Shown: positions 29,284 to 53,912 of the stretch, piece by piece
How positions within the stretch are numbered: the first letter of the stretch is position 1
Layout of the letters: the number at the start of each line of letters is the position of its first letter
Sequence record: NC_048193.1
DNA length: 61,600 bases
Source: Escherichia phage PTXU04
Direction: 5' to 3' (one strand)
The notes under the pieces: model-generated
Seen by the model: only the letters and a program-made list of their open reading frames with translations
The model's database searches: none
Told to the model about the DNA's origin: nothing
Position numbers and translations under genes: made by a program

Positions 29284-29323
29284 TATTTAGATCTCGATGA
29301 CATTCCCTGTAAATTGATAGCGC

Positions 29324-29354
29324 GCCCTTTCCACTTTGGTTAGGGCTTTTTTTT
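29324..29354 (+). terminator. putative rho-independent terminator after the giant gene
   Basis: Imperfect stem (GCCCT ... AGGGC) followed by a run of eight T. Confidence 0.4.
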
Positions 29355-29399
29355 GTGCTATGCTTTTGGTGGGAGTTCTAAGGGCATGGAGCATTTCAT

Positions 29400-29774
29400 A
29401 TGGACATGGGATATTACAACATGAACAAGCAAATCAGAGTGGAAATGCTTGTCGGCATGGTGACATTAACGTGGTCAATCGTGGCGGCAGTATTCAAACA
29501 GCCAGTCATTATTGATGAGTTAACTGGTATCATGCCTGGCGCATGGTGGGTATTCTCAGGCATTGTAATTGGTGGCGCTCAGATCTATATCTCCCGCAAC
29601 CCTGAGCGATGGATGGGAACATTCAGCCACTGGTGTGTAGCGTTCTTCAGTTGTATCTTCTGGTGTTATCTCGGCATGGCCGCACAAGCCGCCGCAGTCG
29701 GAGTAGTTCCCATCCTGATTTTCTGGTCTACCGCTGGCGTCACTTTATGGGAGTTGGCACATGTTCGAACTTAG
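29400..29774 (+). CDS. membrane protein (about 4 predicted TM segments)
   Basis: 124 aa; hydrophobic stretches LVGMVTLTWSIVAAVF, WWVFSGIVIGGAQIYI, WCVAFFSCIFWCYLGMAA, VGVVPILIFWSTAGVTLW; GGAG RBS. Confidence 0.45.
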   Translation: MDMGYYNMNKQIRVEMLVGMVTLTWSIVAAVFKQPVIIDELTGIMPGAWWVFSGIVIGGAQIYISRNPERWMGTFSHWCVAFFSCIFWCYLGMAAQAAAVGVVPILIFWSTAGVTLWELAHVRT

Positions 29775-29994
29775 TTCAATCCCGGTGGACGCTCCGTTAC
29801 CTTTCATTGCGATCGCAGTGTTATTCAACCTGGTACGCCATGCGTTGAATCTTCACCACGAACGTAAGAAGGAGGCAGCGGAAGAGGCCACGAACGAAAG
29901 GATTGTTGTGTTGTCGTCGAAGCTGGCGAAGGCGGAACAGACTATCGAGCACTTGAGGGAAGAGGTGGAACGATTGAAAAACAAAGGGGCTTAA
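29761..29994 (+). CDS. small TM plus coiled-coil protein (spanin-like or antiholin-like?)
   Basis: 77 aa; N-terminal TM (PFIAIAVLFNLV) then charged coiled coil; GGGAG RBS; stop lies in the loop of the bidirectional terminator. Confidence 0.4.
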   Translation: MFELSSIPVDAPLPFIAIAVLFNLVRHALNLHHERKKEAAEEATNERIVVLSSKLAKAEQTIEHLREEVERLKNKGA

Positions 29995-30005
29995 CGCCCC
30001 TTTTT
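29986..30005. terminator. bidirectional rho-independent terminator at the convergence of late (+) and early (-) blocks
   Basis: AAA GGGGC TTAAC GCCCC TTTTT; the stop codons of 29761-29994 (+) and 29991-30191 (-) both sit in the loop. Confidence 0.6.
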
Positions 30006-30191
30006 GATACTCGCTGCAATCTTCAGTTCGACAGGTACGCGATTGAGATCGCGGTGAATGCCTACATCCGGTGGTGCGGAAATACGTAGACCGACGTTAC
30101 CATTCTCAGAGTTCTCTACCGTCACGACAATATCGTTACCGATGTAGACGCTCTGACCTTCACGTCTGGTAATACGGAGTCCCTTAGCCAT
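29991..30191 (-). CDS. CsrA-like RNA-binding protein (carbon storage regulator homolog)
   Basis: ORF-track frame 29991-30257 trimmed to ATG 30191 (GGAG RBS 6 nt upstream). Product MAKGLRITRREGQSVYIGNDIVVTVENSENGNVGLRISAPPDVGIHRDLNRV aligns with E. coli CsrA ([21 protein letters not shown] ... VRIGVNAPKEVSVHREE), including the beta1 TRR and beta5 HR(D/E) RNA-binding residues. Confidence 0.6.
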   Translation of the reverse strand: MAKGLRITRREGQSVYIGNDIVVTVENSENGNVGLRISAPPDVGIHRDLNRVPVELKIAASIKKGR

Positions 30192-30417
30192 TCTTCTCCG
30201 CCTTAGCTTTCTTAGCTTTGATGACGCGACTGATCGCCACCAGTAAAGTAATGACACCAGACACGACCGGGAGATATTCTTCCGGTACCACAGCCTGGAA
30301 TAAATGCGGGGCAGTCTGCCACACTACTAATGCTGCATCAGGTACCGTGGTCAACACGGTAGTAACGGCGATACCGATAGTGATACCAGCGTCATGCAGC
30401 GCTTTGGATTTGTCCAT
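30184..30417 (-). CDS. holin (putative, two TM segments)
   Basis: 77 aa; two hydrophobic helices and a lysine-rich C-terminus (KAKKAKAEKNG); strong AAGGAG RBS; immediately downstream of the endolysin. Confidence 0.6.
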   Translation of the reverse strand: MDKSKALHDAGITIGIAVTTVLTTVPDAALVVWQTAPHLFQAVVPEEYLPVVSGVITLLVAISRVIKAKKAKAEKNG

Positions 30418-30473
30418 CTGTGAAGCTCCTTATATTGGCGTCCTTGCCAGGATTGACGACCTCGACTGGCCGC

Positions 30474-31004
30474 TTAGATGTTCACGCGGTTGGCGACCCA
30501 TCCATAAATGAATGAGCGATTTTTGGCGTTACTTTCGGTAAGCTCAATATACCGCACACACTGTAGGCTGTTAAGCATTTTCAATAATACTTTCGTACCA
30601 GCGCTACCACGCAACCGCAGGAAATCGTCCAGGGCATTAATCGTACGTTTACCGACCTTACCATCCACTACTAGGCCAGCGCCTGACGCGGCGTTGAGCG
30701 CACGCTGGAGGAATTTACCAGCCACCGCCGGACCCATGTTCACGCCAGTGTCTACCACTTCAGCACCGATTGCTGAGTCGAGTTCCGCCACCACGTAGAA
30801 TCCGGTGTTCACTACATAATCGTTGTAGTAAATCTCATACGCTGTAGATTGCGGCAAATCTTTCATGTGACCTTTGTACCCGGCGTTGCGAGCAACCTTC
30901 TCGGTAATTCCGTATTTGGTGGCACCGCCCGGATCATTCGGATGGTCCACGTATCCACCTTCGACCCGGATAATCTCTTCAATGATTTCGCGTACTGTAC
31001 TCAT
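30474..31004 (-). CDS. endolysin (GH108-like lysozyme with PG_binding_3-like domain)
   Basis: 176 aa; N-terminal VEGGYVDHPNDPGGATKYGIT matches the GH108 catalytic signature; AAAGGAG RBS. Confidence 0.8.
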   Translation of the reverse strand: MSTVREIIEEIIRVEGGYVDHPNDPGGATKYGITEKVARNAGYKGHMKDLPQSTAYEIYYNDYVVNTGFYVVAELDSAIGAEVVDTGVNMGPAVAGKFLQRALNAASGAGLVVDGKVGKRTINALDDFLRLRGSAGTKVLLKMLNSLQCVRYIELTESNAKNRSFIYGWVANRVNI

Positions 31005-36254: not shown

Positions 36255-37331
36255 TTATGCGTTGTAAGGGTGTCCGCCAGGTGCAGCAGGTGCAGCCGGA
36301 GGTGCCATTGGTGCAGCAGGTGCAGCCGGAGGTGCCATCGGTGCAGCAGGTGCAGCGGCTGCCGCAGGTTGCATCTTACCGTTAGCGACCAGTGCTTCTT
36401 CGGTCCAGCCGCTGGCGATGTACTGATCGTAAGTGTAATCAGTCGCAATCATGCGGCTCTGCGGCGTCGGTGCTACAGGCGCAACAGGAGGTACAGCAGG
36501 AGCGGCGGCAGGTGCAGGAGCAGCAGGAGGTAGACCAGCGCCCGGAACAGCCGGAGCAGCGGGAGTTGCCGGAGGCATACCAGCGCCGGGTAAACCAGGC
36601 ATACCAGCCGGAGGCATACCAGCGCCAGGTAAACCAGGCATACCAGGTTGTGCACCCATCGCCGGAGTAGCGCCGCCAACAGGCATTGTGCTCATACCAG
36701 TCAGTGCTGCGGCAGGTGCCTGATTCAGAATGCTGGTGTAGTCAGGACCGCTCACGATCGGCGTACCGTAACCCACACGCTGAATCATGTGGAAGTTAAT
36801 GTAGATGCCGGACTGCGGTGGCGCTGAGTCGTTGCACTTGATAGAGCACAGTACGCGAACATAGTGGCCGCACGGGAAAGTGTGAGCGCCTTTAAGCTGT
36901 TGCACTTTCTTACCGTCAGGACCGATGGTGTCGTTGTACGGAGACGGTACCGCAGACTGATCAACGTCGAACACCTGTGGCTGGAAGCCGTTCTTGAATT
37001 TGATAACCCAGCAACCTTTCCAGCCAGGTTTAGCTACGTTCTGCGGAGCGTCGCCATCTTCCATCTTCCAGTGGAAACCTACCCACTGAGTCGCCTGATA
37101 TGACGCAGCGTATTTGTGAGTAGCCGCTACCTGTTGCATCAGTGCGTACAGTTCATCGAAGCGAGTGGCCGCTGGCTGGTCTTTCGGGAAGGCCACCGCG
37201 CAGAAATATTCCTCACGACCGTTCTTCAGTTCAACACCCTGGAAACCAGTGGTGTTAGCGCGGAACGGGTCGCCTGATACCAGGATGCCAGTACCAGTCA
37301 GGAATTGATCAGCAGAGTTTTGAATAGCCAT
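36255..37331 (-). CDS. hypothetical protein with Pro/Ala/Met-rich repeat C-terminus (possible ssDNA-binding protein by position)
   Basis: 358 aa; globular N-terminal domain then PGMPGLPGAGMPPAGMPGLPGAGMPP and AAPAAPMAPPAAPAAPMAPPAAPAAP repeats encoded by 30-36 bp tandem DNA repeats; sits directly after the PD-(D/E)XK nuclease. Function is positional inference. Confidence 0.45.
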   Translation of the reverse strand: MAIQNSADQFLTGTGILVSGDPFRANTTGFQGVELKNGREEYFCAVAFPKDQPAATRFDELYALMQQVAATHKYAASYQATQWVGFHWKMEDGDAPQNVAKPGWKGCWVIKFKNGFQPQVFDVDQSAVPSPYNDTIGPDGKKVQQLKGAHTFPCGHYVRVLCSIKCNDSAPPQSGIYINFHMIQRVGYGTPIVSGPDYTSILNQAPAAALTGMSTMPVGGATPAMGAQPGMPGLPGAGMPPAGMPGLPGAGMPPATPAAPAVPGAGLPPAAPAPAAAPAVPPVAPVAPTPQSRMIATDYTYDQYIASGWTEEALVANGKMQPAAAAAPAAPMAPPAAPAAPMAPPAAPAAPGGHPYNA

Positions 37332-48020: not shown

Positions 48021-48501
48021 TTTTACGACTCCCCCGTGGCCGCGTAACGTGACGCGTGATGTTGTGCTGTTTGCACAGTTTATAAATGCGTGATGAAAAC
48101 ACCCCAATTACAGCAGCGTAATCGCTGGCGGTCATGGTTAGCATCGCTTTACGCAGATGATTGATGTCTACCTTCACGCCCTTCTCAGGACTTTTCCAGC
48201 CGTACTTCTTGCGCACCGTATCAAGCTGGCGCGGTAGGATCCCCAGCAGTTTGGCAGCTTCGACACGCGACTTACGCTCGACGATCATTTTGTTCATCGG
48301 CGTGTTTGCTACTGGTACCCGGTACCGCTCGATAGGTTGCCAGTTCTGCCAGACTACCCGATGTTTGTAACGATGGTTGACACGCTGGACCGCCCGATAT
48401 TTTCCTTTGTGCGTCACGACGCAGTAAGGTTTGTTGAGCACCGCAGACATACGTTCAGCCTGCTTGATGGCCTCGTCCAGTGTGTCACAGGTGATTGCCA
48501 T
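48013..48501 (-). CDS. putative DNA-binding protein
   Basis: 162 aa; basic, with HTH-like segment RVEAAKLLGILPRQLDTVRKKYGW. Confidence 0.4.
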   Translation of the reverse strand: MAITCDTLDEAIKQAERMSAVLNKPYCVVTHKGKYRAVQRVNHRYKHRVVWQNWQPIERYRVPVANTPMNKMIVERKSRVEAAKLLGILPRQLDTVRKKYGWKSPEKGVKVDINHLRKAMLTMTASDYAAVIGVFSSRIYKLCKQHNITRHVTRPRGSRKNG

Positions 48502-48692
48502 TAGCGACGAGCCTTACCACGGCTACGGCCAGGGAGTGCACGAACTTCTAAAGGAATGATGCGAACACCTTTACGGGTATAGCGCTTCGTGTACGATACG
48601 ATCTCGGTGCGCTGCGGTGGTGCCAGGTCACGCAGAGCAGCGGCGAAAGGTGTAGAGAAAGCGTTACCGAACAGCATTTTAAATAAGCTCAT
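48501..48692 (-). CDS. hypothetical basic protein
   Basis: 63-aa ORF with AGGAAA RBS, downstream of the promoter at 48728-48756. Confidence 0.4.
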   Translation of the reverse strand: MSLFKMLFGNAFSTPFAAALRDLAPPQRTEIVSYTKRYTRKGVRIIPLEVRALPGRSRGKARR

Positions 48693-48727
48693 TTTGATTT
48701 TCCTATTGTCGCGTTTGTAGAATAATG

Positions 48728-48756
48728 AATTTAGTATAGTCGTCCCTGACTGTCAA
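48728..48756 (-). promoter_or_regulatory. putative sigma70-like early promoter
   Basis: On the - strand: -35 TTGACA (48756-48751), 17-nt spacer containing CAGGGACG, -10 TAAATT (48733-48728). Confidence 0.35.
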
Positions 48757-53726: not shown

Positions 53727-53912
53727 TTACTTTTCGCCACCCTTAGCCGCAGCATCACGGGAAGCCTGAGCGTTCTCGGCGCGTTGCTGCGCGTTAGGTG
53801 AATCCGACTCAGCGCGCCCGGTTTGACCGGATACGTTTGGATTGTACCCGACGTTGGCAGAGCAACCAGCCAGCAGAGTAGCCAGAACGATAGCGATGAT
53901 AGATTTAGACAT
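53727..53912 (-). CDS. small lipoprotein (signal peptide with lipobox LLAGC)
   Basis: ORF-track frame 53727-54050 trimmed to ATG 53912 (AGGAG RBS 8 nt upstream); MSKSIIAIVLATLLAGCSANVG is a canonical lipoprotein signal; 61 aa. Confidence 0.5.
   Translation of the reverse strand: MSKSIIAIVLATLLAGCSANVGYNPNVSGQTGRAESDSPNAQQRAENAQASRDAAAKGGEK

Follow-up and report, generated by a model that had tools for sequence, protein, structure and literature searches.

The sequence analysed here, called the window below, is the 61,600-nt genome of Escherichia phage PTXU04 (NC_048193.1), and its gene PTXU04_00028 encodes a 66-aa protein, gp28, that belongs to the CsrA family. We put at about 0.8 the probability that gp28 is a CsrA-type homodimeric RNA-binding translational repressor that acts at GGA motifs in ribosome binding sites (RBSs) and whose synthesis keeps pace with that of the putative holin, the product of the overlapping gene; this figure covers identity and mode of action only. 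An earlier note, made from the sequence without database searches, had described the gene as a CsrA-like global RNA-binding regulator. Profile matches, structure, residue conservation and purifying selection support gp28 as a genuine member of the family, but the description as a global regulator is not established. The note had also left as a question whether phage CsrA homologues had been described. They have, this gene included (PMC7366521, PMC8450108, PMC11879866), and the novelty that it implied falls away. Sobrero & Valverde (2020) listed vB_EcoP_PTXU04 (QBQ76642.1, 36% identity) among 30 csrA-positive phages (PMC7366521, Table 3), the homologues in two related phages are annotated as Pondi_00074 ("csrA, translational regulator") and Bas95_0033 ("CsrA-like regulator"), and the gene was knocked down in 2025 (PMC11879866), so the identification is correct and not new. 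What is added here is the conserved position in the lysis cassette, the divergence from E. coli CsrA, and a set of candidate GGA sites.

Family membership of gp28

The open reading frame (ORF) listing and the sequence agree on the 66-aa translation, MAKGLRITRREGQSVYIGNDIVVTVENSENGNVGLRISAPPDVGIHRDLNRVPVELKIAASIKKGR, at the position that the note had given. The protein is 100% identical to P0001, which is PTXU04_00028, and the coordinates in NC_048193 are the same. An 88-aa ORF starting at GTG 30257 was rejected, since all homologues start M-[ASG]-K-G-L and the extension sits in another frame of the holin gene.

The profile search that had been proposed as a check was significant, with residues 5-47 of the protein matching positions 2-44 of 53 in the Pfam CsrA profile (PF02599, 47.5 bits with a gathering cut-off at 27, E=1.7e-12). 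Among PHROG families, phrog_5527 (E=5.9e-9) and phrog_9500, "CsrA-like regulator" (E=1.2e-8), were matched, and all eight matches in a PDB sequence search were CsrA, RsmA or RsmE proteins (E 3e-6 to 4e-4). A profile-free search of 1.84 billion representative proteins returned only two relatives below E=1e-10. Comparison by BLASTP to E. coli CsrA, whose sequence was checked against PDB 1Y00, gave 36% identity over 44 ungapped residues, in a register that sets phage residue n against E. coli residue n-3. The similarity that the note had drawn at both RNA-binding edges is present and ungapped, but its second motif pair was offset by two residues; the correct pairing is phage RISAPPDVGIHRD with E. 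coli GVNAPKEVSVHRE. The mutations that most strongly affect RNA binding in E. coli CsrA lie at R44, V42, L2, I47, V40, L4, R6 and R7 (Mercante 2006 via PMC6692469; PMC7652899), and seven of these eight positions are kept or conservatively replaced in gp28, as R47, I45, L5, V43, I7, R9 and R10.

The predicted fold agrees with this assignment. An AlphaFold2 model of the protomer, built with 81 homologues, has a mean predicted local distance difference test score (pLDDT) of 80, with values of 85-95 over residues 1-48, and this five-stranded beta protomer superposes on solved CsrA, RsmA and RsmE chains. In a Foldseek search of the PDB, the best 15 matches all belonged to these three proteins and the next had E>1. 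Over 39-47 aligned columns, the 15 had root-mean-square deviations (rmsd) of 0.8-2.9 Å, with 14 between 0.8 and 1.8 Å, and target-normalised template modelling (TM) scores of 0.51-0.85. Strands beta1 and beta5 have no strand partners in the monomer model. They turn into strands in a single-chain tandem model joined by a Gly-Ser linker, in which the core has a pLDDT of 73-84, and this model fits an interdigitated dimer without proving it. By homology, we infer that gp28 forms an interdigitated beta-sheet homodimer and binds GGA motifs.

The gene is under selection for an intact product. The ratio of nonsynonymous to synonymous substitution rates (dN/dS) is 0.03-0.15 across five csrA alleles, with dS values that reach 3.0 and are thus saturated, and the ORF is intact in all relatives down to 52% identity. 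Such strong purifying selection indicates that the gene matters irrespective of any plaque phenotype.

Many of the relatives found in databases (among P0010-P0031, P0016 and P0131) carry two to five CsrA-like stretches per chain, which are predicted natural tandem or embedded CsrA domains. Among them are chains of 131, 310 and 627 aa, and a chain of 2,399 aa has four such stretches.

csrA as the conserved last gene of the lysis cassette in the PTXU04 clade

The minus-strand module runs from the endolysin through the putative holin to csrA. Two statements of the note about this arrangement held: the csrA ATG at 30191 overlaps by 8 nt the upstream 77-aa ORF, which ends at 30184, and csrA is the final minus-strand gene, being followed by a terminator hairpin and then by convergent plus-strand genes. 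Its naming of the upstream gene as a holin is putative, with a DUF7940 match of 30.2 bits against a cut-off of 27 and a match to PHROG 1356 ("holin") at E=3.5e-8. Transcription of csrA together with the endolysin and holin genes is presumed. The 8-nt overlap suggests translational coupling, and with the csrA start lying across the holin stop, gp28 would be synthesized in step with holin translation. The beta1 and beta5 surfaces of the dimer would grip single-stranded GGA at or near a Shine-Dalgarno (SD) sequence, and occupancy of the SD would block ribosome loading.

The closest genome relatives among annotated phages are Pondi (92.6% nucleotide identity) and HelliStehle_Bas95 (Bas95, 89.4%), both of which encode a CsrA 94% identical to gp28 between the same neighbours. 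The order endolysin, DUF7940 gene, csrA is kept in these two phages and in four metagenomic contigs (CsrA identity 67-94%), and in all six, homologues of two convergent membrane-protein genes come next. The csrA start overlaps the DUF7940 stop by 8 nt in PTXU04, Pondi, Bas95, L008 and L009, by 4 nt in L003, and by 1 nt in L010. More distant relatives have a spanin gene in the preceding position. In L016, a 60-kb IMG/VR contig (CsrA 63%), the order is endolysin, holin, Rz-like and Rz1-like spanin, then csrA overlapping Rz1 by about 40 nt, and in L007, a 744-bp contig (CsrA 52%), an Rz1-like spanin gene is followed by csrA with a 38-nt overlap. Altogether, csrA comes last in the lysis cassette and overlaps the preceding holin or Rz1-type spanin gene in nine loci, which makes its place as the final overlapping cistron a conserved trait of the PTXU04 clade.

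The Rz-like and Rz1-like spanin genes lie between holin and csrA in L016 (1412-3067) and L007 (53-452). PTXU04, Pondi and Bas95 have none at this place, so their spanins must be elsewhere or missing. The "phage lipoprotein" gp71 (53727..53912) had no PHROG match.

A promoter-like TTAACA-17-TATATT (10/12 matches) is found at 30546-30574 on the minus strand, inside the endolysin gene and some 130 nt before the start of the holin gene; if active, it would yield a separate holin-csrA transcript. In addition, a conserved AGCGGCC... block directly 3' of the endolysin stop (30455-30473, minus strand) corresponds to the first hairpin of the spacer consensus fold, GCGGCC-AGUCGA-GGUCGU, with no T-run after it.

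The published knockdown phenotype

Adler et al. (2025) targeted PTXU04_00028 by CRISPRi-ART and obtained a fitness of -0.22 (P=0.1075, Semi-fit), with single guides giving smaller plaques (PMC11879866). In the same work, knockdown at the holin RBS was Not fit (-1.32), the endolysin Semi-fit, and gp26 and gp27 Not fit (PMC11879866). The small plaques might not come from loss of CsrA at all, if dCas13d bound at this site perturbs holin synthesis or mRNA stability. The guides were centred on 30174-30204 and so also cover 21 nt at the 3' end of the holin gene, the Semi-fit call has the P value given above, and complementation was impossible, expression of the gene being toxic or interfering with infection, as for others (PMC11879866). 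We regard this explanation as unlikely, because the effect of holin RBS guides is far stronger than that of gp28 guides, the authors report no polar CRISPRi-ART effects on a lambda operon (PMC11879866), and csrA is under strong purifying selection.

Evidence against the proposed function and alternative roles

Several observations weigh against gp28 acting as proposed. The cut-offs of the NCBIfam CsrA equivalogs were missed (NF002469, 36.1 bits against 73; TIGR00202, 28.3 against 70.1), which marks gp28 as divergent within the family rather than orthologous to host CsrA. The eighth critical position, I47 in E. coli, is N50 in gp28 and thus not kept. The C-terminal tail (residues 49-66) has a pLDDT of about 50 or lower and no confidently predicted helix, with none in the monomer model and a short low-confidence helix at 54-61 in the tandem model, and its sequence has no relation to the C-terminal helix of E. 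coli CsrA. The predicted homodimer was checked only indirectly, through the tandem model. In the sister group P0009 (59% identical), csrA follows a D5-type primase gene in its own terminator-bounded unit, outside any lysis cassette. The knockdown lacks complementation, as described above, and a literature search found no biochemical study of PTXU04_00028 or any phage CsrA, nor, for PTXU04_00028, any targets or comment on its linkage to the lysis cassette. Finally, at -60..-18 of 79 phage initiation regions, extra GGA sites numbered 34 against 44 expected.

The same scan bears on how widely gp28 could act on phage messages. Across the 79 annotated starts, GGA is enriched in the SD window only, neither upstream nor downstream of it, and since GGA is ubiquitous in SD sequences this enrichment is uninformative. 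Sites of the form A(N)GGA at -60..-18 were also at background (10 observed, 11.4 expected). With no excess in phage initiation regions, a genome-wide CsrA regulon in the phage was rejected.

Low profile scores and a divergent C-terminus would also be expected if the gene were what is left of a bacterial csrA that had been captured and is now decaying or without function. We give this next to no credence: it is effectively refuted by the selection on the five alleles, the ORF is intact in all relatives down to 52% identity, and a knockdown phenotype has been published. Moreover, a megablast search of 5,426 complete E. coli genomes with the endolysin-holin-csrA stretch gave no DNA match, and recent capture from host or prophage was rejected on this basis.

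A further alternative is that gp28 interferes with the host Csr system, either by forming inactive heterodimers with CsrA or by taking up or competing for CsrB/CsrC, and so changes the amount of free host CsrA. In its favour, the modelled beta-core at the dimer interface is CsrA-like. The RNA-binding residues are under purifying selection, however, which would be needless for a pure poison subunit, and we consider this alternative very unlikely. Any interplay with sponge RNAs would need those of the host, because none was found in the phage. Over the full 61.6 kb, no Rfam family, Csr/Rsm sponge RNAs included, scored at or above its gathering threshold, and a strand-specific scan of GGA density found no CsrB-like cluster in the window. 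On these two scans, a phage-encoded sponge RNA of the CsrB/CsrC/RsmX/Y/Z type was rejected. GGA is densest at 36481-36680 on the plus strand (10 per 200 nt), in a segment antisense to the Pro/Ala/Gly-rich linker of the single-stranded DNA-binding protein (SSB), and this peak is a composition artefact and no RNA element. The SSB itself, gp38 (36440-36720, minus strand), has a long repetitive Pro/Ala/Gly/Met-rich linker (...GMPGLPGAGMPPAGMPGLPGAGMPPA...).

Action on host messages is a serious possibility, though we hold it at less than even odds. In this case, gp28 would act mainly on mRNAs of the E. coli CsrA regulon or of defence systems, as a CsrA-like repressor that the host cannot tune, and would thereby reprogram metabolism or immunity; its slot behind the lysis genes would be merely a permissive accessory position beside a terminator. 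Campa et al. (2021) surveyed phage RsmA/CsrA proteins and proposed suppression of host defences (PMC8450108). The RNA-binding surface is conserved and the phage initiation regions have no global GGA-site signature, both of which favour this alternative. On the other hand, csrA is tied into the operon by overlapping frames (8 nt in PTXU04, 38 nt in L007 and about 40 nt in L016) and has no promoter of its own, it stays linked to lysis genes throughout the clade, and the 36% identity to host CsrA together with the different tail means that target specificity may differ.

Candidate feedback on the holin-csrA message

The holin-csrA message is the only specific candidate target visible in the sequence. 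The 56-nt spacer that forms the holin leader contains a hairpin with an ARGGAN hexaloop, the type of loop preferred by CsrA (PMC7652899), whose GGA lies 14 nt upstream of the GGA in the holin SD. If stems of 4 bp or longer are counted, the two genome strands together hold only six ARGGAN hexaloop hairpins. The holin-leader motif GCAnGGAnGC is invariant in seven loci, and the remaining spacer is 43-54% identical in the two most distant. At the csrA start, the SD GGA is kept in six of seven aligned relatives, and the codon for Gly4 is GGA in four of seven lineages, compared to 8% of Gly codons in PTXU04 (post hoc binomial P ~0.001). E. coli csrA autoregulates its own translation (PMC7652899), and the sites in the holin leader and at the csrA start are weak hints compatible with autoregulation of holin-csrA. 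Of the two roles that the note had raised, retuning of host control and timing of the phage's own translation, these hints bear on the second.

Based on these sites, we tentatively suggest negative feedback on the holin-csrA message that would tune the timing of lysis. The gp28 dimer would bind the leader hairpin together with the GGA of the holin SD, and the pair formed by the SD GGA and the Gly4 GGA at its own start, and loss of this feedback would lead to premature lysis and small plaques. Several results count against the feedback. RNAalifold shows no compensatory pairs in the holin-leader hairpin, and a hand-registered alignment has two compensatory cells, a value reached in 85 of 500 shuffles and thus not significant, for which reason covariation support for the hairpin was rejected. 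The leader motif is missing in L016. The SD GGA of csrA is absent from L003, and Gly4 has changed from GGA to GGT in L009, L003 and L007, in which the pair is thus broken, so strict conservation of an autoregulatory GGA pair was rejected as well. The RNAfold z-scores of the holin leaders range from -2.3 to +0.5.

A stronger form, in which CsrA and holin make up a translationally coupled negative-feedback module that serves as a lysis clock, with host CsrA possibly binding these sites alongside the phage protein, is doubtful on present evidence, though it would account both for csrA always closing the cassette as an overlapping cistron and for the small knockdown plaques. Action on host mRNAs and feedback on holin-csrA are not exclusive, and the former is no less likely than the latter.

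Another ARGGAN hexaloop hairpin lies upstream of gp56 (48747, minus strand) and was rejected as a site. It falls inside the spacer of a TTGACA-17 nt-TAAATT element, likely a sigma-70 promoter, so the hairpin is probably not transcribed. The surrounding spacer between gp57 (exonuclease) and gp56 (48501..48692), at about 48720-48755 on the minus strand, does not differ between PTXU04, Bas95 and Pondi (100% identity), whereas the flanking genes are at 85-96%.

Features of the csrA locus and adjacent genes

The coordinates of the features discussed are given in Table 1.

Table 1 Features of the PTXU04 csrA locus, in window positions
Feature	Position	Strand	Basis
csrA homologue PTXU04_00028 / gp28, 66 aa	29991..30191	-	ORF and translation, Pfam CsrA, PHROG 9500
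Overlap of csrA ATG (30191) with putative holin stop (30184), 8 nt, in ATGGCTAA	30184..30191	-	sequence
csrA Shine-Dalgarno GGAG (GGA at -8)	30196..30199	-	sequence
GGA codon of Gly4, 17 nt 3' of SD GGA; candidate second CsrA site	30180..30182	-	sequence
Putative holin PTXU04_00029, 77 aa, two hydrophobic segments and basic tail	30184..30417	-	DUF7940, PHROG 1356
GGA (at -12) in SD AAGGAG of putative holin	30427..30429	-	sequence
Holin-leader hairpin uggc-AAGGAC-gcca, candidate CsrA-type site	30436..30449	-	folding, alignment of relatives
Endolysin PTXU04_00030, GH108 and PG_binding_3	30474..31004	-	Pfam 76.3 and 60.8 bits; PHROG 315 E=7.8e-44
Terminator hairpin AAAGGGGC-GTTAA-GCCCCTTT	29983..30003	predicted on - only	terminator scan and sequence
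gp26, 124 aa, several hydrophobic segments	29400-29774	+	ORF
gp27, 77 aa, one hydrophobic segment then charged coiled-coil-like stretch	29761-29994	+	ORF

The terminator hairpin is kept in all seven aligned loci and also in L016. With T/A runs on both sides, we read it as probably bidirectional. Inside this hairpin lie the 3' ends of two convergent genes, csrA and gp27, which share 4 nt (29991-29994); here the palindromic TTAA of the loop provides the TAA stop of both genes, and the stem codes for the ...KKGR of CsrA and the ...KNKGA of gp27. The RNA structure thus constrains both C-termini.

Pfam and PHROG searches gave no function for gp26 or gp27. Wherever the sequence of a relative extends far enough, their homologues stand beside csrA, also in L016 and L007 with their separate Rz/Rz1 spanins, and the two might be further lysis or membrane factors. 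The leader of gp26 (29284-29399, plus strand), which follows the 2,198-aa gp25, has a terminator-like GCCC...GGGC stem and then eight T, as read from the alignment, next to which comes a 12-bp hairpin with the loop UGGGAGUU. Four GGA lie within 40 nt around the gp26 start, at -28, -12, +2 and +9. This leader could be another CsrA-type site or merely a structured leader.

Significance and comparison with known systems

Phage CsrA homologues are a recognised and mechanistically unexplored route for mobile elements into post-transcriptional control, and PTXU04 gp28 is the one phage CsrA with a published loss-of-function phenotype. The family identification adds nothing to the existing annotation and literature. 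What is gained is testable material, namely the conserved operon position, the candidate RNA site in the holin leader, and residues such as R47. The feedback, if true, would be a new means of timing lysis and would give the first defined target of a viral CsrA.

The gene described here is the same as PTXU04_00028 (QBQ76642.1), with no difference. Similar to E. coli CsrA (1Y00) and Pseudomonas RsmA/RsmE (1VPZ, 2JPP), gp28 is a single-domain protein in the range of about 60-70 aa, with a protomer rmsd to these of 0.8-1.8 Å, and it shares with them the L-x-[IL]-T-R-R of beta1, the V-x-[VI]-H-R-[DE] of beta5, and the critical Arg (R44; R47 in gp28). It differs from E. coli CsrA in that I3 is replaced by Arg, K38 by Pro, E46 by Leu and I47 by Asn, and in its C-terminal 18 residues (RVPVELKIAASIKKGR), a basic, proline-containing tail with no confidently predicted helix. 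Unlike E. coli CsrA, it comes from a virulent phage, in which its gene is probably coupled to that of a holin-like protein, and unlike the Csr/Rsm systems, it has no cognate CsrB/RsmY-type RNA found in the PTXU04 genome.

Among phages, the temperate Pseudomonas phages F116, phi297 and PA8 encode proteins of the "rsmM" type (PMC7366521; PHROG 5527) with 46-54% identity over a core of 43-46 aa. In contrast to gp28, these are 123 aa long and are encoded in an early region near repressor and ParA genes, outside the lysis cassette. CsrA homologues carried by other mobile elements, on plasmid pMBA19a of Sinorhizobium meliloti and as CsrT on Legionella integrative and conjugative elements (ICEs), have also been proposed to act in cross-talk with the post-transcriptional control of the host (PMC7366521, PMC8450108); they are likened to gp28 by description, and differ from it in the type of element and in gene context.

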